Below the pieces are notes generated by a model. That model ran no database searches. It saw only the letters and a program-made list of their open reading frames with translations, and was not told where the DNA came from. Below, piece by piece: positions 17,337-46,352 of a stretch of DNA of 64,000 bases. The first letter of the stretch is position 1. Each line of letters starts with the position of its first letter. The translations under genes and the position numbers were made by a program. Source of the stretch: Chloroflexota bacterium (GTDB lineage: Bacteria > Chloroflexota > Anaerolineae > Anaerolineales > UBA11858); the NCBI GenBank assembly GCA_043818215.1, contig JBDRGC010000023.1, positions 1,976 through 65,975 on the forward strand. Direction: 5' to 3'.

Positions 17337-17650
17337 CGTGGAGCGTGGAGCGGGAAGCAGGAAGCGGGAAGCGGGAAGCAGGAAGCAGGAAGCGGGAAGC
17401 GGGAAGCAGGAAGCGGGAAGCGGGAAGCAGGAAGCGGGAAGCGGGAAGTGGGAAGCGGGAAGCAGGAAGCGGGAAGCGGGAAGCGGGAAGCGGGAAGCGG
17501 GAAGCGGGAAGCGGGAAGCGGGAAGCGGGAAGCGGGAAGCGGGAAGCGGATTTTATCCCACTCCGCTACGCTTCGTGGACTACGTTACGCATCACGTTTT
17601 CACGTTTTCACGTCTAACGTCTTCGCGCAGCATCCCCGAAGGGGGGCACG
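17337..17650. repeat. pstS-pstC spacer: (CGTGGAG)x2, (GGGAAGC/AGGAAGC)x28, core atcccactccgctacgcttcg, CGTGAAA-type units, and motif cttcgcgcagcatccccgaagggg
   Basis: The GGGAAGC array spans 17352-17547, which is 196 nt or exactly 28 units by hand count. Confidence 0.9.
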
Positions 17651-17652
17651 TT

Positions 17653-18543: not shown

Positions 18544-18597
18544 CAGCGCGGGATTATAGCCGTAAATCATGGCGTGGGCAAGTGTGGGAGGGCGGGG

Positions 18598-22139: not shown

Positions 22140-22280
22140 AACGGTTTTTATCCCACTCCGCTACGCTTCGGGGACGGTGTCACGCATCACGCATCACGCC
22201 TCACCCTCCACGCTCCACCCCTCCCCCCTCCACGCTCCACCCCTCCCCCCTCCCCCCTCCCCCCTCCACGCTTCACCTCA
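22127..22280. repeat. CGTGAAA units, core atcccactccgctacgcttcgggga, then CTCCACG/CCCTCCC arrays between convergent genes
   Basis: Read directly. The stop of the 21357 gene (VRET*) lies inside the cgtgaaacgtgaaacg units. Confidence 0.85.
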
Positions 22281-23995: not shown

Positions 23996-25618
23996 ATGGA
24001 ACCCCATTCAGGTCCGTTTCGTTGGTTCAAGATTTTCACTATTTGTCTCCTATCCCTATTTTTATTCAGTCCGATATTTCAAATTCCTTCCCAGGCCGCG
24101 CCTGAACCATCTCCAGAACAGGCTGTCCAGGCCGTCCAACACGCCTGGGAACTGGCCCAGGAAATCGGGATTTACCACTTCACCACCGATGTGGAGCAGA
24201 CCACATATCCAGCCCCCGCGATTGCCAATGTCGGACGCAGCAGCAGCATCCAAACCTATTATTTAGAGGGGGATGTGGATAGCCCGGCCCAAGCGTTTTA
24301 CATGACCCTGTGGCAGGGAGGCGGCAACGCAGCCACCCAAAAGGACGGGATCGAAATCCGCATGGAGGGTGGTGAAGCCTACGGACGGCCTATCGGCGGT
24401 CTCTGGCAGGAAATCGATGATTTCTCGGGCCTTTTCGCGCCAGGTAGCGACCCGATGGCGTATCTGGCAGGGGCGAAAAATATCACACTCGTTTCAAGCC
24501 ATACACAATACGCATTACGCTATATGTTCGACCTGGACGGCCCGGCCTTCGCGGCCCATATGCGCGATCTGCTTGAAGACCAGCTTCGCCGCTCAGGCGA
24601 ACTACCTCCAGGGTTGAGTCTGGATTCATCCATCCTTTATCGTGAAATGACTGGGCTGGGTGAAATCTGGCTGGATGCCCAGGGTTTGCCGCTGCGCTTG
24701 CTCGTGGACCTGGAAATGCCTGACCCCAAAACCGGGGAGCGAGTCAGCGCCAGGATCAAAACTGATTTTTCCAATTTTGCCCAGCAGCCCGAAACCGCAA
24801 TCGGGTTTATCGCTGAAATCCCCACCTGGGATTGGGGCCTCATCCTGCCCCAGGTTGCATTCTGGGGTCTCTTTTGCAGCGGGATCATCGTATTCGTTCT
24901 TTTCCGCCATTCGCAAAAAGTTTATGCCGCTCTGGTGATTGCACTCATTTTTTCGATGGTGGGCACGCCGCTGCTGCAGAGCGCGCAGGTGGCCGCGTTT
25001 TACGAGACCCAGGAGCAGAAACAACTCGAATTTGAGTCCGCTCAAAATGAACGCGCCGCCAACCAAGAAGCCAGGGATGAGTTGCTTACTTCGAGTTGGG
25101 ATCCGCATCAAAATCCAGTGTTCAGTGATCAGTCTTCAGTCTTCAGTCTCCAGTCTTCAGTCCCCAATCCCCAATCACAAATCTTCAATCTCTCGCGCAG
25201 CATCCCCGACAGGGGGCAATCTCTAATCTCCAATCTCCAAGTCTCGACACCGACCTGGACGGGATTGCCGATGCGGTCGAGCAGGCCCTGGGAACCGAGA
25301 TCAATGACCCGGATACCGATGGTGATACCCTCAACGATGGGGTGGAGTTCTTGCGCCTGGGGACCGATCCGCTCTCCAAAGACAGCGATGGTGACGGGAT
25401 TTTTGATAATGTGGAAGTCACCGGTTTTATGGACGTCAACGGCCTGCACTGGTATTTGGACCCCAACTCGCCTGATACGAACAAGGACAGCCGTATCGAT
25501 ACAGAAGAATGCCATCAACTGGTGGGCCGGAATACTGTTGGCGACCGCAAATGTTCGGATACGGATGGCGACAGCACGCCGGATATTTTTGACCGTGATG
25601 ATGACGGGGATGACGTAG
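23996..25618 (+). CDS. Giant surface protein, segment 1 (signal peptide, globular domain, 2 TM helices); meaningful only to about 25128, then runs out of frame
   Basis: AGGAG lies 7 nt before the ATG. Signal peptide FKIFTICLLSLFLFSPIFQIPSQA. After the heptamer array at 25115 the translation becomes low-complexity, while the next frame carries the TSP3 repeats. Confidence 0.7.
   Translation: MEPHSGPFRWFKIFTICLLSLFLFSPIFQIPSQAAPEPSPEQAVQAVQHAWELAQEIGIYHFTTDVEQTTYPAPAIANVGRSSSIQTYYLEGDVDSPAQAFYMTLWQGGGNAATQKDGIEIRMEGGEAYGRPIGGLWQEIDDFSGLFAPGSDPMAYLAGAKNITLVSSHTQYALRYMFDLDGPAFAAHMRDLLEDQLRRSGELPPGLSLDSSILYREMTGLGEIWLDAQGLPLRLLVDLEMPDPKTGERVSARIKTDFSNFAQQPETAIGFIAEIPTWDWGLILPQVAFWGLFCSGIIVFVLFRHSQKVYAALVIALIFSMVGTPLLQSAQVAAFYETQEQKQLEFESAQNERAANQEARDELLTSSWDPHQNPVFSDQSSVFSLQSSVPNPQSQIFNLSRSIPDRGQSLISNLQVSTPTWTGLPMRSSRPWEPRSMTRIPMVIPSTMGWSSCAWGPIRSPKTAMVTGFLIMWKSPVLWTSTACTGIWTPTRLIRTRTAVSIQKNAINWWAGILLATANVRIRMATARRIFLTVMMTGMT
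25115..25245 (+). repeat. Intragenic array 1: 11 heptamers (TCAGTCT/CCAATCC), a 26-nt core ctcgcgcagcatccccgacagggggc, then 3-4 heptamers (AATCTCC)
   Basis: Hand-indexed. The total is about 128 nt, not a multiple of 3. The break from the frame of 23996 to the frame of 25342 lies here. Confidence 0.85.
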
Positions 25619-28600
25619 CCGACCCGGTTGACATCTACCCAATGGGGATGGTGGATCGAGACGGCCAGCATACTAATGGCAGCAACCCCAATGCGTTTAC
25701 AGATGATCACCCTTTCGAACTCAAGATCGAATCATTGCAAACCGGACTACCGGTCTTCGTTGATTTTCAGCTTCGTCCAGAAAACCCAGACCACCTGACC
25801 TACGCCTTGAATGTCCTGGATTGGCCCAGCGAAGACATCGAGGGCCAGATTCAACATGTCAAACACACGACTTTTGCCAGCGATTTTACCGATGAACAAT
25901 TAACAGGCAATCCCTCCGCGGCCAATGGGGATATGCGCCTGATCCCGATGCTGGAGTTGACGATCTCTGGGGATCATGTTCCTTTTGCCCGCACGAATCC
26001 TGCCATTGATGTGGCAGTCCGCGGGGTAATTTCTGGCACCATTCAACTCGAACAGGCCAGCAGCAACCGGGATAACACCAGCCTCGATTTTTCCTTTGAT
26101 GATCCAGGCCAGGATTACACCGTTAAGATTTACGAGGGCGGTTGTCCTGTCTCAGGCACGCCCGTCAAAACTTACACCAATAGATCGGATGGCGATTCAA
26201 GCACCTGGACTGGCAAAAAAGTCGTTGATTTGGCGAATGGTACTTATGCCCTGACCGTGTCGAATGGCACAGATACCGTTTGTGCTGCGATTGGCAATAT
26301 CATCAACGGCCCTTATATCTACGCCATGATTGATCCGGAACCCCTGCGGCCTTATGGAATCTCGGTTCGGGAGGCCGACCAAAATGGAACCCTGATCGCA
26401 TATATCCCCCTCAACATGGTTCCCGACGAAACCGGGGGCGGGCGAGTAGCCTTCTCGGCCCGGATGGCCTATGAACTGGGAACCGATGCCACCTGGGATC
26501 AGGCCCAGCAGGTCCGCATGGTCTGGATGCTGGAAATGCTGACCGATAGCTGCGATTCGAATGGCTTCGAAGAAGATTGGGCCGCCATGACCCTCAGCGA
26601 CCCCACTTTGGGCATGAAAGCCGGTTCAAAAGACGCCGCCTTCCGCACCTGGTGCAGCCTGCCCGAACACCGCACCCCAGACACCTCTCGGATTGTGCAT
26701 ACTTATGACGATTCCTGGATTCTAACCGGGTTGGCGGTACGGGAAGATCATGGCCTGGATGTGGCCGTGGTTTATGAAGACCCCGCCCAGGGGGATGTGG
26801 CTACCAGCGAAAACCTGTGGCAACTCTCCCGCGGGCTGGCCGCCACCTTCCTGGTGGGCCGTGATTGTGAAGACAACGATGTTACCACTTATCCCGATTA
26901 CGACCCGGATACGGGCAGTTGCAATGATGATACGTATCGCGATATTTCAGTCTACACCAATGGCCCGGATGGGAACACGATCGGGAATACCAATATCTAC
27001 AACCGCTTCGATGCATCCGGCAGCGCGGCCGATGGCGATGACCAGCGCTGGGGCATCCCCAAAGCAGCCTTGCAGGTGGCTCGTTTTCGCTACGACAGCC
27101 AGGATTACGCCACCTATCTGGCGATGACCGAAACCCCGGACATTTTGGAAGCCAACTTCGCCCATACCGACGAACCCACCTTGCTTTTTGCCCGTGAAGA
27201 GCATTACCGCAGCGCCGACCTGGGTGCAGCCTCCAAAAGCGGAAGCGTGTTCACCGTAAATATGGTTTCCAGTAATCAACCGCTGCAAACCGTCACCGGC
27301 CTCAAATGGATGCCTTACGCCTATGATGATGATACCGGCTGGTCGCCTATCCCCATTCGAGAACTTTGGGATGATCTCATCATCCAATATGAAGACACCT
27401 TTGCCCAAACCTACCCGGAGGATACCGAAGCCGCCAACCTGGGGCGGGCCGTGGTGGCCCGTTCTTATTATGTATCCCTGATTCAGGGCCTGGTCCAACA
27501 AGTAGAAATTGGCAGTGACCTGCTCTGGCAACCCGACCTGGAAGGAGAAGCCGACGATTGGGTTTACAGCGTCGAAACTCAATTAGAGTACATCTCATTC
27601 TTTGGTTGGATTTTGGCGGACGTACTCAAGGAGGCCTTTGACACTTATGGAACAAAGTGGCGGTTTATCAACATTAGCGGCTTTTCGGTAGATTCGGGTG
27701 TGCTTAAACCCTGGCAAAGCTTGCTGCCGGTGGAAGAATTTCACGGGGCGCTAGAATCGATTGGCGAGGGGATCAAATCGGCCACCTGGGGGCCGTGGGC
27801 CAGCCTCTTCTCCGGTGGGGTTAAATCCAAAATCGGGGCCGGAATAGCCCTGGCTGGTGCTGTGGCGGTGGTTGGGTTGACGATTTATGGCATCACCCAG
27901 CAGAGCAACGCCCTGGATATCGTCTCGATGGTCATGACAGGCCTGTGGGTCATCCTGGCTATCCAGAATCTAGTCAGCACCGCGGTGCAAGTCATCAAAG
28001 CCGTACAAGAGGCTGGCAGTATGGCGGCCGCGGTCAGCAAAGGCTTATCAGAGGCTACCAGTAATATCAAATCGACCTTCAAAAGCGCCGCGGTCGTCGG
28101 GTTGATCATCAGCGTGGTTGCCACCTGGGCTGCCTTAGGCGCCCAGATTGGCCTGTCGTATGGCCTGGGGGGCGGGATGTCGAGCATTGCCCTGGGGACC
28201 GCCATCGCGGGGGCCATCGCGGCAACTGTGGTCATGGTGATTATGTTCGTTATCGCGGCCATTCCCATCGTGGGACAGATCATCGCCGCTATCATCATGC
28301 TGATCGATGCCGTCGTCAGTCTTTTTTGCACCATCTTTCTGGATGAGGAACAAGCCGAACACCCCGCGGCCGAATGGTTCTGCGGCGGTCTGCAAGGCAT
28401 TGTCACCAAAGCGTTGACCGTGTTGATTTACAGCGGCAATGTGATGGTCGAACTTTACCCCGAAGATTACGACCGGTTAGAGTTTTACGACTTTTTAGCC
28501 GATGATCTGGTTGATCCTGATTTAGGGATTTCAGTGGGGAACAAGGTCAAATACAGCCTCTCGATCACCAACACCATCGATATTGCCCCCTTGCCCGATG

Positions 28601-31600
28601 ATCTCGGAGCGGCCTATCGCTACCAATATAACGATAAACAATTACGCAGTTCTGCTTTCAGTTACGATCTATCGATTACCAATACGGTTGAATTGCACGA
28701 AAATTTAGACCGCTACACCACCACCACCGATTGGGAATACGTGGACGGCGGCAGCGAGGCAGATTGGGGCGATTTCGGCCACACCTGGCACAAAGCTGAA
28801 CCGGTTTACATCAACCGCACCGTCCAGCACCCGGATGGAGTCCCCTTTGAGGTTGCCGGGATCAACCAGAGCGTCCCGCTTTACCTCCTGGAGGGCTGGG
28901 CCGTCCCTTCCCAGAACTGCATCCTGGGGATTTGCACCATCTGGACAGATCGCGGCACCGAAAATTTCAACCTGGGCAGCGGCCTGAAATTCGACGTTTT
29001 CCCGGTCACCCTGGATGAATTCTATACCCTGACATCCAAAGATGGGGGTTACGCTCTCGCCTGGTCACAATCTGGCGATGTCACTTTCCCTCGCCTGGTC
29101 GATGGTGATGGAGACGGCATTCCCTACCCTGTCGATGCCCACGACAATGTTTGGGACAATGACGGCGACGGCCTCTCGGATAGTTTCGAGGTCAAGCTGG
29201 GTTCCAACCCGGATAATAAAGACAGCGACGGGGACGGCCTGCCCGACAACCTGGAATTGATCTCTGAAACCAACCCCCTGCGCACCGACAGCGACGGGGA
29301 TGGATTATCGGATGGTGCAGAAGTCTATCATCAAGATATTACCGATCATGACTCAGATGGCAATTTCACTGAATGGTTGGGGGGCTGGGAATATGGCTAC
29401 AATTTAAAACCCGATGGAACCCTGCAAACCACCTGGGTTTCATCATCCCCAATGAGTACAGACAGTGATGGCGATAGCCTCACAGATTTCCAGGAAAAAA
29501 CCTTTGGATTCAACCCCACCTGGATGTCAAATCCCACTATTTTGACCTTTGAATCCACCATTTCTGAGTCCGATGGGAGCGGCGGTTACACCGATTCGGA
29601 CGGTTTCGCCCTGCCGGGGGATACCCTTTATTACGCCGCCTCCGTGGAGAACGAACTCTACAACCGCTGGGCGCACGGCCTGCTGGATACCGATTTTCCC
29701 GGCGTGCTCGATGATGACGCCATTGACCCTCAACCCTTCCTGCTCTATCCTTTGGAGCAGCAGGTCATCGAGGGTCAGGTGCCCGTGGCGAACACTGCGG
29801 CCTCCGGCGTCTACAACCTGACCCAGACCGCCGGCGCCCTGATCTCCGATTGGGCCGAGCTGGCTTCGGGGGCTGCCCTGTGGTATCCCTTCGAGGATGA
29901 CGCCGCCGCAACCACTTACGCTGACCGCTCCGGGTCGATCCCTCCCGACGACGGCACCTGCTCGAACGCCACTCCGGGGGCGGGCTGCGTCCCCATTAAA
30001 AATGACGGCGTTTATGGCGGAAGCCTCAACTTCGATGGGACTGCCCGCGTTGCCTCAGACTACGATCCTGCGGACAACGCGTTCGCAATTTCATTGTGGT
30101 TCAAAACCACTGAGCCTAATGGCGGCCTGTTAGATACCCAAGGGTTCTGGGATCGCTGGTTGTATCTGTATGGTGGCAACGTCAAGGCCAGAATGTACAA
30201 CGGAGTTTCTCACCAAATCCTGACCAGCGCGCAGACCTACAACGATGGGGATTGGCATCATGTGGTGCATACCTTTGGCGGGTCAGCCGGTGGACAGAAA
30301 CTGTATGTGGACGGGCAGCGGGTCGACAGCGGGAGCTACACCACGGCCAGAGCCAGCACAAACGGGATCCGCCTCGGCTATGCCAATATCAGCGGCATTG
30401 GCTACTTCGACGGCAAAATCGATGATGTTCGACTTTTCGAGCGCGGCCTGACCTTCACAGAAGTGCAGGCAATCTTCGATACGCCCATCCTCGACCTGCG
30501 TTTCAACGAAAGTTCGGGATGGCAGGATTCCTCGCCTTTCGCAAACGATGCCTCTTGCACCGGAACCTGTCCCGATCACGTTGACGGCATCGATGGGCGG
30601 GGGGCCAATTTCAGTGGCAGTCACTATATCACTGTGCCCTCCGATGACAGCCTGAAACTCAACCAGGGCGGCTTTACCATTGGCGTCTGGATTTATCCGA
30701 CCGAATCCCCGGAGTATTGTTACCAGCGTGAGTTTTACAGCCCGCCCTGCGATATCTGGAAACCCCAGCCCCAGGGCATTTTGGGATTCGGCAGCGGGGA
30801 AGACAACGCTTACCCTACCTTACAGCGGGTGGGAAACGCGCTGCGCTTTACCTACGGGGACAAACCCTATTTCACCACCGGCGATGTCCTCCAGCCCAAC
30901 AAATGGAACCATGTGGCCGTGTCCTATGATGGCAGTGCTGTACTCATCTACGTTAACGGTGTGAAAGTCGCCGAAGATTCCACCACCTTCACCACGCCCC
31001 CGCCAGGGACCAAAACCCTGACAGTTGGCCGCAGTGGGACAGCCGGGACCTTCGAAGTCAAGAAAGTTCGCGTTGATGAAGAGGGCGACGGCATCGGGAA
31101 GGCCGAAATGTGTATCGCCTTTCGATCCTACGGCGGTGATTGGCAAACGGTCTTCGACCAGCAGGTGGATGGCGGACTGGTGGATGCATCTTATTTCCCC
31201 CTGCTTTACAATGTCGCCGCTGGCCCCTTCGAGTTCAATACCCTCGCGGATTTACGAGTCTGGGAGGATGATGGCGGGGAACACTGCGTCACGGTTAATA
31301 ATAAAAGTGATTCCGACCCCATAGATGACGGGGATGATGGCATGGGATTCTGGTCATTCCGCACGACGGATGTCAGCAAAGGGTTCGACAAGCTCTATTC
31401 CACCGACCCCACCACGGATCCCTACCGCCACTATGGGTTGATGGGATATTCCGGCGATTCTTCCGGTCATTTCTACATGGTCTACCACAACGACTCGATA
31501 CCCTTCTACGGCAAAATTGATGAGTTGCTGATCTACAACCGCCCCTTCGATGCTGACTCGGTTCTGGATATGTACCAGGCCCAGCGGCTTTCCCTGCACC

Positions 31601-34600
31601 TGAAATTCGACGACCCCCCCGGCGAGACCAGCTTCGTCGATTCGAGCTTTGGGCATCACAACGCCTCGTGCGGCGGCGCAGCCTGCCCTGTGGCTGGCGT
31701 TGCCGGCCGCGTTAACCAGGCCGCCATCTTCGATGGGAATGATCACCTGACCCTCGCCAACAGCGGGATCAACCGCCTGACCAACGAATTCAGCGTCGCG
31801 GCCTGGATCAGGCCGGAGAGCGTCAGCGGCTACCACCGTATTCTTTCTACGGCACGTACCAACAGCCACAACGGGTTTGCATTTGGCACTTACAACGACG
31901 GCCTGAGCTTCACAACCTTTGGGAAAAAGGATTACGCCCTGACCGGATTGGGCCTTGTGACCGGGAAATGGACTCACGTCGCCGCGGTGATGGACGAAAA
32001 CAACGCTGTCAGTTTCTACGTCAATGGCGTATTCCAGGACATCGTCGCCGGGTCATCCCCCGCGAGCGCGGATACCGACGATGCCCTCCTGGTGGGCGCG
32101 ACCACCGATAGCGGAAGCAGCGTCCGGATTCAGACCTTCAATGGCCGCATCGATGACCTCTACGTCTTCTCGAACGCCCTCAGCGAAGCCGGGATTCTAA
32201 ATCTTTACCAGAATGCCCCCGCCTTCCAACTCCACCTCGATGAAACCCAGAGCGCAACCGGTTTTTCAGATGATGCCAACCCCTCCCGAATGGTCTCCTG
32301 CACTGGCAGCCATTGCCCGCAGGTTGGTTTTGGTGTAGACGGCCAACTGGGGACCGCTGCCCAGTTTGATGGGGTCGATGATTATATCTACACGCCATAC
32401 AGTCAACAAACCACTGGAGATTTCTCCATCTCTGCCTGGGTGCGGCCCACCGCAATCCGGGACGGTCAGCAACCCATCTTTGTTCACTATGCCACATCCT
32501 ACGCAAACTTTGGGTTATTCATCAAGCCAGATTCGATGATTCCCCAGTTCCTGGCCCACGGTTGTGCTGGGGGGAGCGAGACAGTTCTCGATTCAGGATC
32601 CGCACTCATTATGAATTCCTGGAACCACATCGTAGGCACTTATAGCGGCGGGACGATGACGATCTATATCAACGGTGCCCCCCAAGGCAGCCAGAATTGG
32701 AACCGGTGCCAAAACCCTGGCCCGTTCTGGGTTGGCGGGAATGTGCCTGATACGGTGCCTTTTGCCGGTCAACTGGATGAAGTCACCCTCTACAATCACG
32801 CCCTCTCACGGCAAATGATCGCCGAGATTTTCAACTACCAGGGCAAATGGGTTCAAGAACGTCAGAGCCACAATATCGCCATCGATGACGATAACCCCAC
32901 CGTGACCCTGGAAACCACCGGCGACCGCCTGCCGGACACCGATGTCCAGATGCTGGTCATCGCCAGCGACCCCACTTCGGGCATCCAAAGTGTCCAGTTC
33001 GGCGTACAGGCTCCTGGGCAGAGCAGCTACACCTGGAGCGACGCGCCTCCCTGTCAGGATGCCGCCGCCGAGACCGCCTGGTGTCCCACCTTCAACCCCG
33101 CTGGCGAAGGGGCTTATAGCCTGCGCGCCAAAGTCACCGATTTGGTCGGCCATATTTCCACAACCGATGCCACCGTTTATGTGGACAATCAATCGCCCAC
33201 CGCCACTTTCGATTTCACCGCCAACGCACTCCTGCTCCCCACCCTCTCGGATACCCAGCCCAACACCTGGGAACTTGCTCTTTCAGGGATGATCAGCGAT
33301 CCGGATATCGGTTCGGAGGCGGGCAGCGGGGTGGCCGCCAGCAGCCTCCAGGTAAGCGTTTTCAATGAAAATGGAACCCTGGTCGGCCCAGCACCGCAGC
33401 CCCCGACTTTGAACGGGGACAATTGGAGCCTGGATTACGATATCGCCGAACCCTACCCCAGCGGCATTTTCACCGTCACCCTGACTGCCACGGATAAGAT
33501 CGTTTTACGGGCTGGATTGGATGATTCTCAACTAGATCGACATTCCCTTGAGACCTCCCGGTTGATTCAGATCGATGCCACACCCGCGGCGGGGTACCTG
33601 GATTTGGGAGGGGTTACAGCTCTCATCACGGACACTCAAACCCTGGAAGGGCAGGCCACCGAGCGTCCCGTTCACCTGCGCGTGGCATGGAATACCGACG
33701 CCCACGCCGACCAACTTGGGCTGGCAATCACCTGCAATGGCTTGATCCAGCACCAATTCCAGCCGGGGACTCTCCAACCTTTAGCCGATTCTTACTCCTG
33801 GAGCGGCGACGTCCACCGCGGCGCGGCCTGTCAGATCCATCTCACCGATACCGGCGGGGATGGCGGCACCAGTGGGACTATCGAGGCCTGCGGAGAAGAA
33901 ATCGCCGACTGGGATGCGAGTTTCGGCGGGGGGCAGGTAGTCAACTTTACGGCAGTTGCCGATGCCTGCGGCCCCTCCCTGGATGTGGCCGGGGTCGCGG
34001 GGGTCGAAACGGCCCTCGTCTCGGTGCTGCCCGGTTCGCCGTTTTACAACCAGGAACCCATCCCTGGGGCAACCCTACACCTGCCCTTTGACGATGTTCC
34101 CACAGCCAACGGAACACTTAGTTTCCGCGATATCTCTGGCGAAAACCGCAACGGCACCTGTACCGGGATCGCCTGTCCAACATGGGGACAGCCCGGCCAC
34201 GTTGGCAGAGCGGTGTCCTTTTCTGGGGCGCAATGGATCGATAGCACCAACTTCGATATCGACGATGACTTCACCCTGTCCCTGTGGATCAACCCGCTCG
34301 CGACCAGCGATGGACAGTCTTTCATCGGAAAACACACCTACGGAGGTTCCAACCTGATCGTTTTCGGTTTTTGGAACGGTGGTTATAGCTTCCGCATCCG
34401 CAGTGATTCTTACGATGCGGGCACAAAAACAACCGGCTGGCAGCATCTCGTTGTGGTCGGCCAAAAGACCTCCGCCACCACTACCCTCGTGACGGTCTAT
34501 AAAGACAACCAACTTCTCTGGCAGCATACTTTGAATGCTGTGGTGGGGAATGTATCTGGCAAACCCTGGAGCTTCGGCCAGGAATGGGATGGTAATACCC

Positions 34601-37600
34601 GCAGCGATTATTTCTCCGGCCTGATGGATGAGGCGCGTTTCTTCGACCGGGCCATGGACGCCGCCGAAATTAGCGAACTTAATATGGGAGCCAACCCGGT
34701 GCTGCACCTGCCCCTGGACGAATCCTGGGCCAGCAACGGAACGGCCCTCCCAGATCAATCAGGCTGGGCGCATGACGGCTGGCTCTCTGCCGGCATAGGT
34801 GACATGGTCAATAAGGCCGCCCCAGGCGGGGTTGGCCCCTACGCCCTCGATTTCGACGGGAGCGACGACCACATCACCATCCCGGATAGCAACGCCCTGG
34901 ATTTGGAACAGTTCAGCGTTGGGTTGTGGGTCAGGCCGGACACGTGGTCATATTCCGTGGATAACCCCCTGATTCTGAAGGGCAACCAAAGCGGGAATAA
35001 CCTCAACTATGGCATTTATATCACCGCTCAAGGGAAGCTCAGTTTCCGTTTTTATGATGCTTCTTGCACGACCCTGCACGCGGTAGAAGACGGCGTTGCC
35101 CCTCTCCATCAATGGAGCCACATCCTAGCAACTTACGATGGGACACAAGTGAGCATTTATCGAAATGGTCAGGTTGTCAAAACAGAAGCGGTTTCTGGGG
35201 GAGTCTGTCAAAATAATGATCCGGTGTGGATTGGCGAAACCCCAGGTGGGGTGACCACATACGAGGGCCTGATTGACGATGTGATCCTTTACCCGCGAGT
35301 GATTTCTGAACCTGAAGTGGAGAGTCTCTACGCGGCTGGTTGGCAATCGACTACCACAACACCGACAGGGGTCGGGGTGGAACTTTCCGATTGGAACACG
35401 AGCATCCCCGCCGGGCTAGAAGGAACTTTCCGATTAGATTTACGCGGCGAGGACATGAACGCTTTGGTCAGCAAACCCGAGGCGGCTTGGCAGGGCGAGA
35501 TCGACACTCTGGATCCACGAGTGACGCTGGATGCCCAGGTCAGCGGCGACACCGTCCAATACACCACCATCGCCGCCGACTGGAACCTGACCGAAAGTGG
35601 CTATAACACGCCCTGCGGTGCGGGGATCATCGACCAGCGGGAATATTTCGAGTCTCCCTGGTATCAGGCCTTGGGCACTGGCGAGCAGCGTGTTTATCAG
35701 CTAACGACACAATGCGAACACTCCATCGCGGAATTATCCGGCGAAGTTGGGGCCTACGATACCCCCGGACTATCTTATGGCGTTGCCGTCAGTTCCACTC
35801 TGTCGTATATCGCCGATGGGGAGGGTGGTCTGCAAATCGTGGACGTCTCTAACCCCGTTCAGCCCCAATTCGTCGGTTCTCTGGGTGGGATATATCCCTG
35901 GGCCGTGGCAGTCGCACCCGGGGGGGCAGTGTTGATACCTGATCTGATGGTCGACAGCATTGCCGTAGAACCGGCTTCCCCGGAGATCAACCAGGCCTTC
36001 ATCGTCAGTGTGACGGTCCGCAACCAGGGGGCTGGCACGGCCTGGAATTTCACCACTGCAATTTATCAGGATGCCCAACCCGCGGCCTGTGAGGGGTCGA
36101 TCCCCCAATGGACGGCTGCCATCCCGCGGCTGGATGCCGGTCAATCCGCGGTGGTGGCCTTCTCCCACTCCGGGTTTTCGTCTTTCACCCCCCACACCCT
36201 CTACGCCCAGGCGGATTCCGGCTGCATGGTCGCCGAGTCCGACGAAGCGAACAATATCGCCGGCCCGCTGTACATCACCGCTGTCCAATCGGACCTGGTG
36301 GTCGAAAGTTTGAGTTTCGATCCGGTTTCCCCGTTTGAAAACCAGCCCTTCACCATTACCGCGGTGATCTCCAATACGGGCACCGGGGCAGCGGCGACTT
36401 TTAGCACCACGATCTATATTGACCAGGCAATTGGATTCACAGACTGCAACGTTCCTGGCTGGGCTACTATGTCCGTATCATCGTTAGCGGCAGGCACTTC
36501 TACGGAGGTGGTCTTTAACCATTCTGGGCTCTCAGCCACGGGGGATTACGAAGTGATTGCTTATGCCGATTCGGGCTGCGATGTGGCCGAAAGCCAGGAA
36601 CTGAATAACCTTGCCGGCGATTGGGTCACTGTAGTCACAGCACCTAAACCGGATTTACTTATCACGCTTATTACCTCAGAAACCAACTCTCCCATCATCA
36701 ATCAGCCCTTTGTCGTCACTACCACCGTCCACAACCAGGGAACTGCGGCCAGTGGTGCTTTTACAACGACGGTCTTTTTGGACGAACAACCGTTAGCATG
36801 CCCGAATCTGACAGGACAGTTTGATGCCACCCGCATCACCAACCTCGATCCGGGCGAATCGGCCACCATCACATTCACCCATCCTGGGATATCAACGTAT
36901 GGCGGGCACTTTATCACATCTCAGGCTGACAGCCATTGTGAGGTGATTGAATCAATCGAGACCAACAACACTTCCACCAGGCTTAATTTGAACGTAGTTG
37001 ATCCTAACAAGCCAGACTTAACGATAGAAAACATCGTCACCCATCCGATAACCCCCACGATTAACCAATCCTTTATCATCAGTGTAACTTTGAAGAACCA
37101 GGGGCTGGGAATTGCTGTAGATTTCTATGGATACATTATGACTGCCATCTATCAGGATAAAGTACCTTCGAATTGTGATGAAGGTACTCTATGGATCTAT
37201 ACCGGTCCGCTCAACCCTGGTGAAACCAGGATCATTACCAGGACGCTGGCTGGGATATCCACGCCAGGGCCACACCAGTTTTATGCAAATGTCGATTCCG
37301 CATGTGAAATCTCAGAATCTAACGAAGACAATAACATCTTTGGGCCGATCACTGTAACAGCAAGAGCACCCGATCTCATCGTCGAAGAAATCGCCACCCA
37401 ACCCATCACGCCAACAATCAACCAATCTCTGGTGGTCAGTGTCACGATCAAAAATCAGGGGTTGGAGGCAGCTCAAAACTTCGATACAACTTTCTACTTC
37501 GACCATATCCCCTCCCAATGTGATGAGGGCGCGCCGGACTGGTATTTTGCTCATACCGATTACCTGACCGCTGGCGTTTCCACCGTGGTCACAATGACGT

Positions 37601-40449
37601 ATCCCGGTTTCAACAGTACCGGAACGCATCAGATTTACGCTCAGGCGGATGGCGCTTGCCAGGTGACTGAGGCCGACGAGGACAATAATATCTATGGCCC
37701 CCATGATGTTACCGTTTCCAGCTCGGGACCAGCCCCCGACCTGATCATCGAGGCCCTGGATACCCAGCCCGCCGCGCCGGGCGTCAACCAGCCTTTCAGC
37801 ATTACCGTACTCGTCAAGAACCAGGGCTTGCTGGGAACCGGCTCGTTCGACACCGGTGTCTTCATCAACGAGCAGCCCACAGGCGGATGCCATGATATAC
37901 CCTGGGATTACCAGATGATCTCGCTTGCAGCGGGGATCTCGACTACCCTGACGTTCGAACACCCCGGATTGATCGAGGGCGGCCCGAACGACATCTATGC
38001 CATGGCCGATGTATGGTGTACTGAAATAGAATCGAACGAATCCAACAATATCTTCGGCCCAATCACAATCGATGTGGCCGCATTGGATGGAAACCGCCGC
38101 CAGTCCTACGCCGGAGACTTCGCCTGGCCAGGGAAACCCCTCCTGGCGGTTTTCTCTCGGCTGGTATTTCGCCCAGGGTCGGGACAGCCCGTTGCGGGTC
38201 AGGTTGAGCCGTCCATGCAAGCATCAACCCCAACACTAACCAGCGTCTATACGTACACCTACGCTTATATCGCCGATGTCAGCTATGGGCTGAGGATCGT
38301 CGATGTCAGCGATCCGGCTTCCCCTGCACAGGTGGGCGCGCTGCCACTCCCCGGCCCAATGCGGAACATCGTCGTGGCGGGCGATTATGCCTATCTGGTC
38401 AGTCAATTCAACGGGTTATTTGTGGTCGATATCTCCAATCCGGGTTATCCGGGTCTGCTGGATTCTTACGCTACCCCGGGCCACACCGAAGGTCTGGATG
38501 TCAGCGGCGGATACGCCTACGTGGCCGACAGGTTGGCGGGCTTGCAGGTGATCGATGTCAGCGACCCCAACGCCCTGCAATGGAAAGCCGTTTACAACAC
38601 GCCGGGATACGCCTATGGTGTGGATATGGTTGGCGGGTACGCTTATGTAGCCGATGGCAGCGGTGGTTTGCAGGTGCTCGATATCTCGAATCCGTCGAGT
38701 CCCCAGTTTGTGGGAGAACTCGATTCTATATACGCTGTTGACATAGATGTGAACGGCAACACTGCCTATATTGTGACCGGCTCGCAGGGGCTGGCCGTGG
38801 TCGATATCTCCGATCCGGCTAATCCTGAACTCGAACGCTGGTTCAACACCCCCGGTTACGCGCAAGATGTGGTCTTCTCGGGGGAACTGGCCTATATTGC
38901 GGATCAAGACAGCGGGCTGCGGGTGATCAACCCTACCGAACACATACCCGAAGCCACGGCTTGCGACACCGCCGGGCATTGCACCACAGTGGAAATGACT
39001 CACTCCGCGGCCGATTTGGTGCAAGTTGCCCTGGATCGAAATCCGCAGGCCGAGATACATTTCCCATTGGCCGCGCCGCCGCTCTCGGTGGAAATTCTCA
39101 ACCTGCCGTCTGTCCTGGACAGCACCGCTCCCTTCACCATCACCGGCCATGCCACCAGCACCCTGACCACCCTGGAGTTGATCACGGTCACAGTGGATGG
39201 CACGGCGTTGATGGTTACAGGCTGGGTCAGCGGCACGCAAGAGAGTGATTGGAATGCCGGTTGGACTCCCGCCGGGGATGGGCCGCACCTCGTCCGGGCT
39301 GATGTTTTGGGTGCCTATGGCAGCACGGCCAGCGAGACCGTCACGGTGACGGTGGATACCCTGGCGCCAACCGTCAATATCTCACCGACGGTTTACACTA
39401 GTGCGGATTATTACGAGCCGCGCACCATCAACCTGCGCGGGGAGTATGCGGATGCGGGCGGGGTGGCGAGTGTCGAGTGGCGAGTGGCGGATGGCGAGTG
39501 GCGGGTGGCGAGTGGCGAGTGGCGGGTGGCGGGTGGCGAATGGCGGGGGGGCTGGTCGTTGGATGCTGGGCCGCTGCCGGATAATGAGACTTTCACCGTT
39601 TATGCACGCGCCACCGATATCGCCGGACATACTACTGAGATTAGCGAAACCGTCACCGTGGATGTGCTGCCGCCGGAGGCCGTTACCCTGACCCTGACCG
39701 GGAACGGCAGCCCTCTCGCCCCCGGCGAAATCCTGCCAACTGCGGCGGCCAACTTCGTCCTGACCTGGGATGCCAGCAGCGACGGCAGCGGGCTGGACGA
39801 CTATCAAGTCCGCTGGACGACCCAGGTCACGGACACGATCTCGGCGGAATTCACGCACACGGTTCCCACAACCGGCCCGTTGACCTCTGTCTACGCGGCT
39901 GTGGATGGGCAAAAGGTCTCTGTTGAGTTGGGCAGCCGGGATACACTCGGTAACCAGCGCTGGCAGAGTTTCGGCAGCGTGTTTGTGGACAGCCAGCTTG
40001 CGCTAGATTACATCGCCATGAATGTAGGGGATGAGGGTATGTACCGCGGCTGGATGGAGTCAGACTGCACCGATCTGGGGATTGACCGGCGGGCCAACCG
40101 CATTTATGGCAATATCCCCGCACAAGAACTCTTCGCCTCTTGGAATGCGGGAGCTTTGCGTCTGGCCTGGATTGGCGGCAACTGGTACGCCGATGGCGAC
40201 CTGTTCCTCTACCTGGATACAGCCGCAGGCGGTACGAACCAGGTCTATGATCCCTTCGGCGCTACCTACGACATCACCCTGCCCGATGGGATGCTGGCGG
40301 ATTACCTCGTGTGGGTGCAGGACGGGGAGACAGCCAGTTTGCTCCACTGGGAGGGGGGTTGGGTGGTTGCCAGTGATCAGTTACCAGTAAGCAGTTTTCA
40401 GTTTTCAGTGGTCAGTGGTTGGCGGTTACGGATTTGTATTTGCCTTTAG
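25129..40449 (+). CDS. Giant surface protein, segment 2 (TSP3 repeats, TM bundle, 6 LamG, Ig-like, 6 CARDB, LVIVD propeller)
   Basis: The frame is open from 25129 (TGA at 25126-25128). Recognisable sequence starts at 25243 (LDTDLDGIADAVE). The ORF track begins at GTG 25342. There is no SD and no ATG of its own. Confidence 0.75.
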   Translation, partial: SVFSLQSPVFSPQSPITNLQSLAQHPRQGAISNLQSPSLDTDLDGIADAVEQALGTEINDPDTDGDTLNDGVEFLRLGTDPLSKDSDGDGIFDNVEVTGFMDVNGLHWYLDPNSPDTNKDSRIDTEECHQLVGRNTVGDRKCSDTDGDSTPDIFDRDDDGDDVADPVDIYPMGMVDRDGQHTNGSNPNAFTDDHPFELKIESLQTGLPVFVDFQLRPENPDHLTYALNVLDWPSEDIEGQIQHVKHTTFASDFTDEQLTGNPSAANGDMRLIPMLELTISGDHVPFARTNPAIDVAVRGVISGTIQLEQASSNRDNTSLDFSFDDPGQDYTVKIYEGGCPVSGTPVKTYTNRSDGDSSTWTGKKVVDLANGTYALTVSNGTDTVCAAIGNIINGPYIYAMIDPEPLRPYGISVREADQNGTLIAYIPLNMVPDETGGGRVAFSARMAYELGTDATWDQAQQVRMVWMLEMLTDSCDSNGFEEDWAAMTLSDPTLGMKAGSKDAAFRTWCSLPEHRTPDTSRIVHTYDDSWILTGLAVREDHGLDVAVVYEDPAQGDVATSENLWQLSRGLAATFLVGRDCEDNDVTTYPDYDPDTGSCNDDTYRDISVYTNGPDGNTIGNTNIYNRFDASGSAADGDDQRWGIPKAALQVARFRYDSQDYATYLAMTETPDILEANFAHTDEPTLLFAREEHYRSADLGAASKSGSVFTVNMVSSNQPLQTVTGLKWMPYAYDDDTGWSPIPIRELWDDLIIQYEDTFAQTYPEDTEAANLGRAVVARSYYVSLIQGLVQQVEIGSDLLWQPDLEGEADDWVYSVETQLEYISFFGWILADVLKEAFDTYGTKWRFINISGFSVDSGVLKPWQSLLPVEEFHGALESIGEGIKSATWGPWASLFSGGVKSKIGAGIALAGAVAVVGLTIYGITQQSNALDIVSMVMTGLWVILAIQNLVSTAVQVIKAVQEAGSMAAAVSKGLSEATSNIKSTFKSAAVVGLIISVVATWAALGAQIGLSYGLGGGMSSIALGTAIAGAIAATVVMVIMFVIAAIPIVGQIIAAIIMLIDAVVSLFCTIFLDEEQAEHPAAEWFCGGLQGIVTKALTVLIYSGNVMVELYPEDYDRLEFYDFLADDLVDPDLGISVGNKVKYSLSITNTIDIAPLPDDLGAAYRYQYNDKQLRSSAFSYDLSITNTVELHENLDRYTTTTDWEYVDGGSEADWGDFGHTWHKAEPVYINRTVQHPDGVPFEVAGINQSVPLYLLEGWAVPSQNCILGICTIWTDRGTENFNLGSGLKFDVFPVTLDEFYTLTSKDGGYALAWSQSGDVTFPRLVDGDGDGIPYPVDAHDNVWDNDGDGLSDSFEVKLGSNPDNKDSDGDGLPDNLELISETNPLRTDSDGDGLSDGAEVYHQDITDHDSDGNFTEWLGGWEYGYNLKPDGTLQTTWVSSSPMSTDSDGDSLTDFQEKTFGFNPTWMSNPTILTFESTISESDGSGGYTDSDGFALPGDTLYYAASVENELYNRWAHGLLDTDFPGVLDDDAIDPQPFLLYPLEQQVIEGQVPVANTAASGVYNLTQTAGALISDWAELASGAALWYPFEDDAAATTYADRSGSIPPDDGTCSNATPGAGCVPIKNDGVYGGSLNFDGTARVASDYDPADNAFAISLWFKTTEPNGGLLDTQGFWDRWLYLYGGNVKARMYNGVSHQILTSAQTYNDGDWHHVVHTFGGSAGGQKLYVDGQRVDSGSYTTARASTNGIRLGYANISGIGYFDGKIDDVRLFERGLTFTEVQAIFDTPILDLRFNESSGWQDSSPFANDASCTGTCPDHVDGIDGRGANFSGSHYITVPSDDSLKLNQGGFTIGVWIYPTESPEYCYQREFYSPPCDIWKPQPQGILGFGSGEDNAYPTLQRVGNALRFTYGDKPYFTTGDVLQPNKWNHVAVSYDGSAVLIYVNGVKVAEDSTTFTTPPPGTKTLTVGRSGTAGTFEVKKVRVDEEGDGIGKAEMCIAFRSYGGDWQTVFDQQVDGGLVDASYFPLLYNVAAGPFEFNTLADLRVWEDDGGEHCVTVNNKSDSDPIDDGDDGMGFWSFRTTDVSKGFDKLYSTDPTTDPYRHYGLMGYSGDSSGHFYMVYHNDSIPFYGKIDELLIYNRPFDADSVLDMYQAQRLSLHLKFDDPPGETSFVDSSFGHHNASCGGAACPVAGVAGRVNQAAIFDGNDHLTLANSGINRLTNEFSVAAWIRPESVSGYHRILSTARTNSHNGFAFGTYNDGLSFTTFGKKDYALTGLGLVTGKWTHVAAVMDENNAVSFYVNGVFQDIVAGSSPASADTDDALLVGATTDSGSSVRIQTFNGRIDDLYVFSNALSEAGILNLYQNAPAFQLHLDETQSATGFSDDANPSRMVSCTGSHCPQVGFGVDGQLGTAAQFDGVDDYIYTPYSQQTTGDFSISAWVRPTAIRDGQQPIFVHYATSYANFGLFIKPDSMIPQFLAHGCAGGSETVLDSGSALIMNSWNHIVGTYSGGTMTIYINGAPQGSQNWNRCQNPGPFWVGGNVPDTVPFAGQLDEVTLYNHALSRQMIAEIFNYQGKWVQERQSHNIAIDDDNPTVTLETTGDRLPDTDVQMLVIASDPTSGIQSVQFGVQAPGQSSYTWSDAPPCQDAAAETAWCPTFNPAGEGAYSLRAKVTDLVGHISTTDATVYVDNQSPTATFDFTANALLLPTLSDTQPNTWELALSGMISDPDIGSEAGSGVAASSLQVSVFNENGTLVGPAPQPPTLNGDNWSLDYDIAEPYPSGIFTVTLTATDKIVLRAGLDDSQLDRHSLETSRLIQIDATPAAGYLDLGGVTALITDTQTLEGQATERPVHLRVAWNTDAHADQLGLAITCNGLIQHQFQPGTLQPLADSYSWSGDVHRGAACQIHLTDTGGDGGTSGTIEACGEEIADWDASFGGGQVVNFTAVADACGPSLDVAGVAGVETALVSVLPGSPFYNQEPIPGATLHLPFDDVPTANGTLSFRDISGENRNGTCTGIACPTWGQPGHVGRAVSFSGAQWIDSTNFDIDDDFTLSLWINPLATSDGQSFIGKHTYGGSNLIVFGFWNGGYSFRIRSDSYDAGTKTTGWQHLVVVGQKTSATTTLVTVYKDNQLLWQHTLNAVVGNVSGKPWSFGQEWDGNTRSDYFSGLMDEARFFDRAMDAAEISELNMGANPVLHLPLDESWASNGTALPDQSGWAHDGWLSAGIGDMVNKAAPGGVGPYALDFDGSDDHITIPDSNALDLEQFSVGLWVRPDTWSYSVDNPLILKGNQSGNNLNYGIYITAQGKLSFRFYDASCTTLHAVEDGVAPLHQWSHILATYDGTQVSIYRNGQVVKTEAVSGGVCQNNDPVWIGETPGGVTTYEGLIDDVILYPRVISEPEVESLYAAGWQSTTTTPTGVGVELSDWNTSIPAGLEGTFRLDLRGEDMNALVSKPEAAWQGEIDTLDPRVTLDAQVSGDTVQYTTIAADWNLTESGYNTPCGAGIIDQREYFESPWYQALGTGEQRVYQLTTQCEHSIAELSGEVGAYDTPGLSYGVAVSSTLSYIADGEGGLQIVDVSNPVQPQFVGSLGGIYPWAVAVAPGGAVLIPDLMVDSIAVEPASPEINQAFIVSVTVRNQGAGTAWNFTTAIYQDAQPAACEGSIPQWTAAIPRLDAGQSAVVAFSHSGFSSFTPHTLYAQADSGCMVAESDEANNIAGPLYITAVQSDLVVESLSFDPVSPFENQPFTITAVISNTGTGAAATFSTTIYIDQAIGFTDCNVPGWATMSVSSLAAGTSTEVVFNHSGLSATGDYEVIAYADSGCDVAESQELNNLAGDWVTVVTAPKPDLLITLITSETNSPIINQPFVVTTTVHNQGTAASGAFTTTVFLDEQPLACPNLTGQFDATRITNLDPGESATITFTHPGISTYGGHFITSQADSHCEVIESIETNNTSTRLNLNVVDPNKPDLTIENIVTHPITPTINQSFIISVTLKNQGLGIAVDFYGYIMTAIYQDKVPSNCDEGTLWIYTGPLNPGETRIITRTLAGISTPGPHQFYANVDSACEISESNEDNNIFGPITVTARAPDLIVEEIATQPITPTINQSLVVSVTIKNQGLEAAQNFDTTFYFDHIPSQCDEGAPDWYFAHTDYLTAGVSTVVTMTYPGFNSTGTHQIYAQADGACQVTEADEDNNIYGPHDVTVSSSGPAPDLIIEALDTQPAAPGVNQPFSITVLVKNQGLLGTGSFDTGVFINEQPTGGCHDIPWDYQMISLAAGISTTLTFEHPGLIEGGPNDIYAMADVWCTEIESNESNNIFGPITIDVAALDGNRRQSYAGDFAWPGKPLLAVFSRLVFRPGSGQPVAGQVEPSMQASTPTLTSVYTYTYAYIADVSYGLRIVDVSDPASPAQVGALPLPGPMRNIVVAGDYAYLVSQFNGLFVVDISNPGYPGLLDSYATPGHTEGLDVSGGYAYVADRLAGLQVIDVSDPNALQWKAVYNTPGYAYGVDMVGGYAYVADGSGGLQVLDISNPSSPQFVGELDSIYAVDIDVNGNTAYIVTGSQGLAVVDISDPANPELERWFNTPGYAQDVVFSGELAYIADQDSGLRVINPTEHIPEATACDTAGHCTTVEMTHSAADLVQVALDRNPQAEIHFPLAAPPLSVEILNLPSVLDSTAPFTITGHATSTLTTLELITVTVDGTALMVTGWVSGTQESDWNAGWTPAGDGPHLVRADVLGAYGSTASETVTVTVDTLAPTVNISPTVYTSADYYEPRTINLRGEYADAGGVASVEWRVADGEWRVASGEWRVAGGEWRGGWSLDAGPLPDNETFTVYARATDIAGHTTEISETVTVDVLPPEAVTLTLTGNGSPLAPGEILPTAAANFVLTWDASSDGSGLDDYQVRWTTQVTDTISAEFTHTVPTTGPLTSVYAAVDGQKVSVELGSRDTLGNQRWQSFGSVFVDSQLALDYIAMNVGDEGMYRGWMESDCTDLGIDRRANRIYGNIPAQELFASWNAGALRLAWIGGNWYADGDLFLYLDTAAGGTNQVYDPFGATYDITLPDGMLADYLVWVQDGETASLLHWEGGWVVASDQLPVSSFQFSVVSGWRLRICICL
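27830..28345 (+). other. Internal cluster of about 5-6 predicted transmembrane helices in the giant protein
   Basis: IGAGIALAGAVAVVGLTIYGI; LDIVSMVMTGLWVILAIQNLV; AAVVGLIISVVATWAALGAQIGL; IALGTAIAGAIAATVVMVIMFVIAAIPIVGQIIAAIIMLIDAVVSLF. Confidence 0.6.
29095..29520 (+). other. Thrombospondin type-3-like Ca-binding repeats (a second cluster; the first is at 25243-25640)
   Basis: DGDGDGIPYPVD, DNDGDGLSDSFE, DSDGDGLPDNLE, DSDGDGLSDGAE, DSDGDSLTDFQE. Confidence 0.8.
29878..35343 (+). other. Six LamG/ConA-like (Laminin_G_3-type) modules separated by an Ig-like stretch (32870-34030)
   Basis: Each module begins L(H/W)LPxDE... and ends like F.G.IDDVRLF.RAL...E(I/V)..L(Y/F). Example: YFDGKIDDVRLFERGLTFTEVQAIF. 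The second module carries a nested insert of about 150 aa (about 31040-31490). Confidence 0.75.
35938..38080 (+). other. Six tandem CARDB-like modules (about 120 aa each)
   Basis: Starts are PDLMVDSIAVEP, SDLVVESLSFDP, PDLLITLITSE, PDLTIENIVTHP, PDLIVEEIATQP and PDLIIEALDTQP. Each has V.N.G and ES(D/N)E.NN. Confidence 0.8.
38250..38935 (+). other. LVIVD-repeat beta-propeller (6 repeats, plus one isolated repeat near 35790)
   Basis: YAYIADVSYGLRIVDVSDP, YAYLVSQFNGLFVVDISNP, YAYVADRLAGLQVIDVSDP, YAYVADGSGGLQVLDISNP and further repeats. Confidence 0.8.
39461..39544 (+). repeat. Intragenic array 2: 12 heptamers (GAGTGGC/GGGTGGC), 84 nt, in frame
   Basis: Hand-indexed units. Translated as VASVEWRVADGEWRVASGEWRVAGGEW inside an Ig-like region. 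Confidence 0.9.
40371..40426 (+). repeat. Intragenic array 3: 7-8 heptamers (CAGTGAT CAGTTAC CAGTAAG CAGTTTT x2 CAGTGGT x2)
   Basis: Hand-indexed at 49-56 nt. The break between the 25342 frame and the 40419 frame lies here. Confidence 0.85.
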
Positions 40450-45987: not shown

Positions 45988-46352
45988 AAACTCTCTTACC
46001 GCGGAGAACGCAGTACCCCTTCGGGTATGCTTCGCGAAGAACGCAGAGAAAAACCTAAAACCAAGTTTAGGAATTCATGCCAGAATCTGAGCAAAGTTCC
46101 GAAATCTTAATTTGACAATGGCACATTAAACATTTGTTCTATCAAAACAAGCTAGTTCGCTGGTTGAGTAGGCATCTTTTCGCCGTATCGAAACCAAGAA
46201 CGGGTTCTGCGTATGCCGCTCCGCCTTGATTTCGATACGCTCTGCTACTCAATCAGCGGCTCCGCTTTTTACTATACGAAAATGTGACAATGTCACATTA
46301 AACTGATTTTCAATAATCTCAGCGATCTCCGCGTGCTCTGCGGTGAAATAAC
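45988..46352. repeat. Repeat-packed spacer: ccgcggagaacgc/ccccttcgggtatgcttcgcgaag motif, direct repeats of tgacaatgNcacattaaac flanking a long gagtag...gtatcgaaa // tttcgatac...ctactc hairpin, and a ctccgcgtgctctgcggt motif
   Basis: Read directly. It lies between the hypothetical gene and prs. Confidence 0.7.

Follow-up and report, generated by a model that had tools for sequence, protein, structure and literature searches.

Heptamer tracts at the frame breaks of a giant predicted surface-protein gene in a Chloroflexota bacterium

The 64,000-nt stretch of contig JBDRGC010000023.1 analysed here (assembly GCA_043818215.1, positions 1,976 to 65,975 of the forward strand), referred to below as the window, comes from a Chloroflexota bacterium and holds a giant gene whose reading frame changes within a tract of imperfect heptamers, junction 1, at 25115-25245. 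The question raised by this locus is whether the tract is a reversible switch, an error of the assembly, a decoding device, or a lesion that has silenced the gene. The reading favoured here, with a probability of about 0.58, is that a giant surface-protein gene, normally intact, has recently been inactivated by real frameshifts at heptamer indel hot spots.

Junction 1 is composed, as the original prediction had stated, of 11 imperfect heptamers, a 26-nt segment and four further units (Table 1). Both direct reading of the sequence and Tandem Repeats Finder (TRF) agree with this, the latter calling period-7 arrays at 25116-25162, 25161-25176 and 25217-25245 with 87% matches or lower. The first 11 units run CCAGTGT, TCAGTGA, three times TCAGTCT, CCAGTCT, TCAGTCC, CCAATCC, CCAATCA, CAAATCT and TCAATCT, and the TCAGTCT units at 25129-25149 form the only perfect triple of the tract. 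Altogether 15 heptamer units, of a length not divisible by 3, are thus placed in a linker of the giant gene, and in the assembly the tract has a length of 3n+2. Frame 2 holds the upstream ORF (open reading frame) 23996..25618, and frame 1 the 5,106-codon open run at 25129..40446; the claimed net offset of -1 within a single gene is confirmed by these frames and by the relatives, which have one ORF. The downstream frame is set by the number of units because 7 is not a multiple of 3. In in-silico edits, the addition of 7 nt or the removal of 14 nt on either side of the core opens the reading frame to about amino acid (aa) 5,480, in agreement with the forecast that one unit more or two units fewer would fuse the frames, and the removal of 7 nt or the addition of 14 nt leads to a stop at aa 407 or 414. 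The frame is also restored at junction 1 by deleting the 14 nt at 25136-25149, and deletion of the 26-mer at 25192-25217 fuses the frames too, giving the stop-free '...QIFNLISNLQSPSLDTDLDG'. Translation in frame 2 bears out that the upstream frame passes through the entire tract without a stop. A perfect heptamer array gives one and the same 7-aa peptide in all three frames, which accounts both for the stop-free read-through and for the tolerance of heptamer tracts in linkers.

The ORF at 23996-25618, the open frame at 25129-40446 and the ORF at 40419-43091 together make up one ancestral gene, now in three pieces and about 6,370 codons long, as their colinearity with relatives shows, and its product is predicted to be a membrane-anchored multi-domain surface protein. 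The N-terminal module comprises a signal-peptide-like start, a conserved domain of about 220 aa, two hydrophobic helices, a Q/E-rich coil and the motif 'WDPHQNP'; the signal peptide and the transmembrane helices were read from the sequence by eye, and no Pfam family matched the module. The 540-aa protein P0001 is the annotated product ABIG63_01060 of an NCBI Chloroflexota metagenome-assembled genome (MAG). Frame 1 contains no ATG, GTG or TTG between 25129 and GTG 25342, which is the first possible start, sits within a TSP3 repeat and is not followed by a signal peptide. Since the frame-1 run has no start or signal of its own, the ectodomain must draw its start, signal peptide and membrane helices from the upstream ORF, and independent translation of the giant frame-1 ORF is ruled out on the same grounds. 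When 7 nt are added at junction 1 and 1 nt at junction 2, a second break described below, a single ORF of 6,367 aa results, colinear with residues 1-5,975 of the relative P0055 at 43% identity. The locus has the marks of a frameshifted gene: orthologues are uninterrupted, the ORFs of the window are colinear with them in different frames, and the downstream piece lacks a start and a signal. It is also worth mentioning that the protein collection holds the giant ORF only from the internal ATG 28444 onwards (P0053, 28444-40446, 4,001 aa), the first 1,100 frame-1 codons being unrepresented.

Table 1. Position and content of the features discussed, in coordinates of the window
Feature	Position	Strand	Description
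N-terminal module of the giant gene	23996..25114	+	frame 2; from translation and 52 homologues
Junction 1, 5' heptamer array	25115..25191	+	11 imperfect units, TCAGTCT-type grading to CCAATCN-type
26-nt segment between the arrays	25192..25217	+	CTCGCGCAGCATCCCCGACAGGGGGC; the core as originally predicted
24-nt dispersed hairpin core	25194..25217	+	CGCGCAGCATCCCCGACAGGGGGC; within one heptamer unit (CT^AATCT)
Junction 1, 3' heptamer array	25218..25245	+	about 4 units: AATCTCT AATCTCC AATCTCC AAGTCTC
Out-of-frame tail of the upstream ORF	25246..25618	+	frame-2 reading of TSP3-repeat DNA; last ~124 aa of P0001
Ectodomain open run	25129..40446	+	5,106 codons in frame 1; TSP3, LamG, CARDB, LVIVD
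Third intragenic array	39461..39547	+	GTGGCGA x12; in frame, encodes VEWRVADGEWRVASGEWRVAGGEWR
Junction 2 heptamer tract	40366..40427	+	NCAGTNN x8, including CAGTTTT x2 and CAGTGGT x2; net -1, frame 1 to frame 0
C-terminal piece of the giant gene	40419..43091	+	frame 0; P_proprotein and Big domains
Second core copy	17624..17647	+	intergenic, within a TCACGTTT array; adjoins AGCGGGA x28
Third core copy	46013..46036	-	degenerate, 4 mismatches including a compensatory stem change; direct repeat TGCGTTCT on the flanks

That the gene is normally intact follows from its relatives. A profile scan of species-representative genomes gave 26 loci from Anaerolineae or Ardenticatenales, and in about 20 of the 26 the open frame that holds the N-terminal module continues for 3,000-3,700 codons or more, lower bounds because the fetched DNA usually ends before the frame does. 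A HMMER search with the C-terminus of the giant ORF of the window yielded full-length relatives of 5,616-6,435 aa. They begin with the N-terminal module and the linker (P0055 of 6,429 aa, P0057 and P0061) and extend 700-1,200 aa past the point of the stop at 40447; LVIVD and P_proprotein stand in one product in relatives. The nearest relative in the protein collection is 75% identical and is without the junction region. The suggestion that every relative is split, drawn from homologues of at most 640 aa, is ruled out by the full-length proteins and the open genome loci. The protein-homologue listing for the N-terminal query contains no product above 640 aa, though full-length relatives exist, and is biased to short products.

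All relatives have a variable linker of 25-60 aa after a conserved 'WDPH.DPL' motif, and in several of them this linker is an in-frame heptamer array, mostly of CCAATCT-like units. The term 'insert' in the original prediction was therefore imprecise, and the left edge of the supposed insert is fuzzy as well, 'WDPHQNP' being native sequence. The linker array of locus L002 is in frame and encodes PISNLQSPISTIQSPISTIQSPISTIQ, with PISNLQSPISTIQ three times; in-frame heptamer-coded peptides stand at the same site in L005, L007 and L003 too, and L005, L007, L003, L022 and L035 hold array remnants at the linker. In L001, L002 and L005 the N-terminal domain is 76-81% identical and the linker arrays are wholly different, all of them in frame. 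About 26 intragenic arrays in the relatives reside in ORFs that remain open, and two more array hot spots, occupied in some relatives, are located within the N-terminal module. As a separate observation, the coding region of the N-terminal domain in L001, L002 and L022 carries AACGTGA x5 followed by TCACGTT x6, about 345-425 nt after the match start, and this inverted array pair encodes 'KREDVKRE...HVSRFTF'.

Broken copies of the gene were found among the relatives too. The contig of L030, with a coverage of 5.7x, is also broken inside the linker array, by a 6-nt unit; L035 shows three non-array deletions in the orthologous gene; L005 has an in-frame stop at 6337-6339, after 781 codons; and in L026 the frame changes after 2,751 codons (about 16506-18091). 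At the P0009 locus (L031-L034; about 7330-7345 in L031) a 1-nt indel after 'GWEV' yields products of 513 aa and 4,980 aa, and the identical split is present in 7 contigs from at least 4 samples of the Joint Genome Institute (JGI), because of which it is regarded as fixed in that population. Pseudogenisation of the giant gene is, on this reading of the loci, recurrent across the family.

The second break of the giant gene in the window, junction 2, also falls in a heptamer tract. The distance between 'QF' and 'TDLY' is 23 nt in the window vs 24 nt in the relatives, which are without the break and read '...LLLHWTGAEWVVEQGLEAGQYQFHASLHQGHTDLYLPF...' in a continuous frame. The frame-1 stop is at 40447-40449, and ATG 40452 begins 2 nt after it. 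Junction 2 has the appearance of a near equal-length swap of native sequence, 56 vs 57 nt. Likewise, the GTGGCGA x12 array equals in length a segment of the Ig-like domain of P0055, P0057 and P0061, giving the impression that an array was written over the native sequence. Two of the three arrays of the giant gene, those at junctions 1 and 2, break the frame, and the one at 39461-39547 is in frame, which is unlike the described genomes with heptanucleotide arrays. Both frame lesions in 19.1 kb are confined to about 280 nt of heptamer tract, for which a rough estimate under uniform placement gives about 2e-4, and the remaining 6,000-plus codons of the giant gene have no stop.

The linker between the anchor module and the first TSP3 repeats is occupied by an imperfect heptamer array, of the kind that fills the spacers of this genome, with a 24-nt hairpin mini-repeat nested inside one of its units. 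With a tract of 3n+2, translation from the only start and signal peptide ends in the 540-aa product, and the ectodomain frame is left without a start or export signal of its own. In the favoured reading, that of a recent inactivation, both lesions would be slipped-strand-type indels at heptamer tracts that act as hot spots: they are taken to be recent because the 5,106 downstream codons carry no stop, and hot spots are suggested because both lesions lie in heptamer tracts and L030 is broken inside its linker array. One candidate event at junction 1 is a +14 expansion that may have created the only perfect TCAGTCT triple, a simple history because deleting 25136-25149 restores the frame. The gene would then be OFF in the consensus of the sequenced population, as a newly pseudogenised or a non-expressing variant. 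The arithmetic allows reversion by a further change of units, though degenerate tracts and the need to correct two sites would make it slow. A pseudogenising lesion, which had been named as one option, is the best supported of those considered; the 24-nt core, taken to be frame-neutral, would not be its cause.

Several points weigh against this reading. It rests on one assembly consensus, and a consensus or sequencing error or a mixed population could mimic a frameshift. An element of 26 or 29 nt, both of them 3n+2, would alone explain the shift, as the frame-restoring deletion of 25192-25217 illustrates. The intact 15-kb downstream frame fits a still-used, switchable gene equally well. Finally, frame breaks near the 5' end recur in relatives, as in the 7 contigs of the P0009 locus, and OFF states under selection, or split genes still expressed in some form, might lie behind such recurrence.

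Contingency loci built on simple sequence repeats (SSR) undergo slipped-strand phase variation, known examples being the tetranucleotide tracts of Haemophilus and the CTCTT repeats of the Neisseria opa genes; a degenerate tract is a poor slippage substrate next to such tracts. A recent treatment of these loci is available (PMC12721329). Junction 1 resembles them in having a tandem repeat of a unit that is not a multiple of 3 inside the ORF of a surface protein, so that a change of units cycles through three frames, one of them ON. A reversible heptamer switch, turning the giant surface protein ON and OFF in the population and caught by the assembly at an OFF length, would also fit the arrays found at the same linker in divergent relatives and turning over quickly between genomes 76-81% identical, L030 as another out-of-frame array allele, the intact 5,106 downstream codons, and the position of both lesions of the gene within heptamer tracts. 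Such a switch is nevertheless unlikely. The tract at junction 1 is degenerate and mixed, with two unit families and a nested 24-nt element, and no long homogeneous run of units was found there, the maximum being TCAGTCT x3. Exact internal repeats do not exceed 14 nt at junction 1 and 11 nt at junction 2, and identical units never number more than 3 in a row; degeneracy of this degree makes fast slipped-strand switching improbable. Two independent out-of-frame tracts, the second 15 kb downstream in the same gene, would both need to be in phase; about 20 relatives are in frame; and L030, a contig of 5.7x coverage, owes its break to a unit of 6 nt. The host, an uncultured and free-living member of the Chloroflexota, is also unlike the usual hosts of such loci. 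Of the contingency logic proposed originally, the 7-nt frame arithmetic stands, and the tract itself argues against the rest.

An artefact of assembly, sequencing or consensus, with the true genome in frame at one or both junctions, had been proposed as well. In its favour, tandem repeats, a known source of assembler and polisher errors, underlie both breaks, no other flaw is seen along the 19-kb gene, and the source is a MAG contig. The degeneracy that speaks against fast switching also makes a repeat-collapse misassembly unlikely, however: with no exact repeat above 14 nt, the tracts are resolved by any k of at least 21. Junction 1, at 131 nt, is shorter than a typical read. A much longer perfect array at 17349-17549 was assembled, and junction 2 is a net 1-nt difference and no miscount of units. 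The proposal is weakened by these points, and we consider it to have little chance of being right.

The segment between the two arrays of junction 1 has relatives of its own. Another copy of the 26-mer lies at 17622-17647, against 0 expected by chance; the extent of the core had to be revised, for the six copies found have exactly 24 nt in common, CGCGCAGCATCCCCGANNGGGGGC, and not 26. Three of the copies are in the window and three in metagenome contigs, one of the latter (L028) being present in the viral collection too, as L036. The copies have a CCCC/GGGG stem, a variable loop and one compensatory change, C-G to A-T, among the six; in their alignment 97% of cells are paired, but 69 of 500 shuffles equal this, so that the pattern is suggestive and short of significance, and the hairpin folds no better than shuffled sequences (z = -0.9). 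The size falls within the range of 21-27 nt of small dispersed repeats, and the copies are often nested: those at 25194 of the window and in L027 occupy the same unit position (CT^AATC) of CCAATCN arrays, and that at 17624 lies in a TCACGTTT array. In L028 and L029 the core is found outside arrays, and it is absent from all 26 related loci scanned. In L027 the array-core-array sequence is read in frame (SAASPTGG) as a linker after the lipobox of a LysM lipoprotein, and excision of 24 nt restores the exact heptamer phase. Removal of the 24-nt core from junction 1 restores the phase of the array and not the reading frame. The core is best seen, from these copies, as a frame-neutral mini-insert of 8 codons, and since it is frame-neutral the shift is attributed to the length of the arrays, to which the 3n+2 would belong.

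As a separate observation on the viral copy, the core lies in L028, that is L036 (IMG/VR UViG_3300027900_000536), at 4374-4395 on the minus strand, in frame near the 5' end of an ORF and reading 'SRSIPERG'. By eye, this ORF looks portal-like. The copy hints that the mini-repeat may also travel with phages.

A frameshift caused by insertion of the hairpin mini-element itself, at 26 nt or at 29 nt with a T-rich 5' edge, into an array that had been in frame, would account for the stop-free frame obtained on deletion of 25192-25217. All six copies are preceded by T, window copy W2 and L028 share GTCTT upstream, and the element is dispersed and so presumably mobile. This explanation is nonetheless improbable, more so than a switch or an artefact: only 24 nt are common to all copies, the array-embedded copies open to this check, W1 and L027, both regain exact heptamer phase when 24 nt are excised, and translation in L027 and L028 passes through the element in frame. 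This common extent and the two in-frame readings are why the 26-nt core is disfavoured as what caused the shift.

Could the ribosome instead bridge the pieces, by a -1 or +2 frameshift or by a hop over the hairpin, or are they genuinely separate genes? The hairpin is located in the zone of overlap, and the frame-2 CUC at 25190 is matched by frame-1 CUC codons at 25192 and 25228, which could serve for take-off and landing; the closeness of ATG 40452 to the preceding stop counts on this side as well. Known bypass elements are those of T4 gene 60 and the mitochondrial 'byps' of Magnusiomyces, which junction 1 resembles as a short GC-hairpin insert in a coding sequence with identical codons on both sides. 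It differs from them in that the putative take-off CUC is followed by UCG, with no stop, hungry or obvious pause codon, that the 24-nt core is in frame elsewhere (L027 and L028) and intergenic at 17624, and that the second break has no hairpin; on these grounds junction 1 does not qualify as a translational bypass element. Programmed -1 frameshifting is ruled out by the absence of an in-frame slippery X XXY YYZ heptamer anywhere in 25129-25615 and by the weak hairpin. Also on the negative side, the frame-1 piece lacks a start codon and a signal peptide, and the relatives have one ORF. Junction 1 gave no match to an Rfam family, and no promoter or terminator was found there, so that a terminator, a promoter or a known RNA at this site is ruled out by negative searches. 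Recoding and separate genes are therefore the least credible of the explanations weighed here. No more credible is the broader idea that arrays and nested hairpin are decoding devices that re-set the frame, either with a +2 re-pairing on CUCUC (25190-25194) or by hopping past the hairpin from the CUC at 25190 to that at 25228, or, in a milder form, reversible switches for a surface protein of 6,400 aa. If decoding of this kind were true, the cell would produce a low, adjustable amount of the giant protein even with a 3n+2 tract.

The arrays of the giant gene are part of a wider pattern. There are 21 merged period-7/8 arrays in the 64-kb window vs 0 in each of 20 first-order Markov surrogates, and nearly every intergenic spacer is filled with 7-8-nt arrays; among the relatives the density ranges from 0 to about 4 arrays per 10 kb. 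A pst-like ABC operon on the minus strand (PBP 17653-18570, permeases 16432-17328 and 15385-16214, ATPase 14497-15258) has all three of its spacers filled with heptamer or octamer arrays, at 15261-15382, 16244-16431 and 17337-17647. The first of these is stop-free and artificially joins two genes as an ORF of 526 aa. The second is an inverted array pair, TCAGTAAA x12 followed by the complement CTGATTTA; such pairs, here and in L001, L002 and L022, would form long hairpins. The third includes the near-perfect AGCGGGA x28.7 array at 17349-17549, which begins 10 nt ahead of the minus-strand permease's start codon and is, with an exact internal repeat of 78 nt, the one tract of the window with real slippage potential. 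Elsewhere, two 94%-identical copies of a 181-nt unit, each with several internal hairpins, are located at 49046-49427, bordered by GTCAACGA or GTCAGCGA octamer arrays and followed by ACTCGCCG arrays up to the next gene. A C-rich array block (TCACGCA, CACCCTC and 22-nt CCCTCCACGCTCCACCCCTCCC units) occupies 22180-22277, in a region with only a doubtful ORF of 149 aa. No tRNA genes were found in the window.

Units containing CAGT recur in the window (TCAGTCT, TCAGTAAA, CAGTTTT), and in this motif they resemble published heptamer families. Heptanucleotide repeats known as STRR were reportedly described in cyanobacteria by Mazel et al. in 1990. Nostoc punctiforme is said, in work of Elhai et al. 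from 2008, to contain small dispersed repeats (SDR) of 21-27 nt that are often nested in tandem heptamer repeats. The core is like these SDR in being a 24-nt dispersed sequence with a short GC hairpin and a variable loop, nested in heptamer or octamer arrays; it differs in sequence and phylum, in having only 6 copies and a single compensatory pair, and in that two copies are translated in frame. Among other bacteria, marine Beggiatoaceae have TAACTGA repeats (MacGregor 2015; PMC4679880), and long SSRs are dominated by heptamers according to Mrazek et al. 2007, as summarised in PMC4679880. The arrays of the window resemble STRR and long-SSR arrays in that many families of 7-8-nt units fill the spacers, including those inside an operon, with occasional copies within ORFs at tolerated peripheral or linker positions. 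Unlike STRR1-3 and the TAACTGA repeats of Beggiatoaceae, they belong to an Anaerolineae-like Chloroflexota host and have the units TCAGTCT and CCAATCT, and, unlike described heptamer arrays, they recur in several genomes at conserved hot spots within a giant gene. No report of heptamer arrays of this sort in Chloroflexota was found in the literature searched. By its sequence, junction 1 is, in this comparison, kin of the cyanobacterial and Beggiatoaceae heptanucleotide arrays, and the core appears as kin of the SDRs nested in such arrays.

Annotation should merge the 540-aa 'hypothetical protein' with the giant ORF that lacks a start, as a single frameshifted gene. The heptamer-array genome phenotype, seen so far mainly in cyanobacteria and giant sulfur bacteria, extends to an Anaerolineae-like Chloroflexota lineage, where it comes with a nested 24-nt hairpin mini-repeat. 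Were reads to reveal length ladders in 7-nt steps, the locus would become a rare example of SSR phase variation beyond host-associated bacteria, and one that affects a protein among the largest known in bacteria. The arrays colonise conserved hot spots inside a giant surface-protein gene, where they are usually kept in frame, yet can break the gene.

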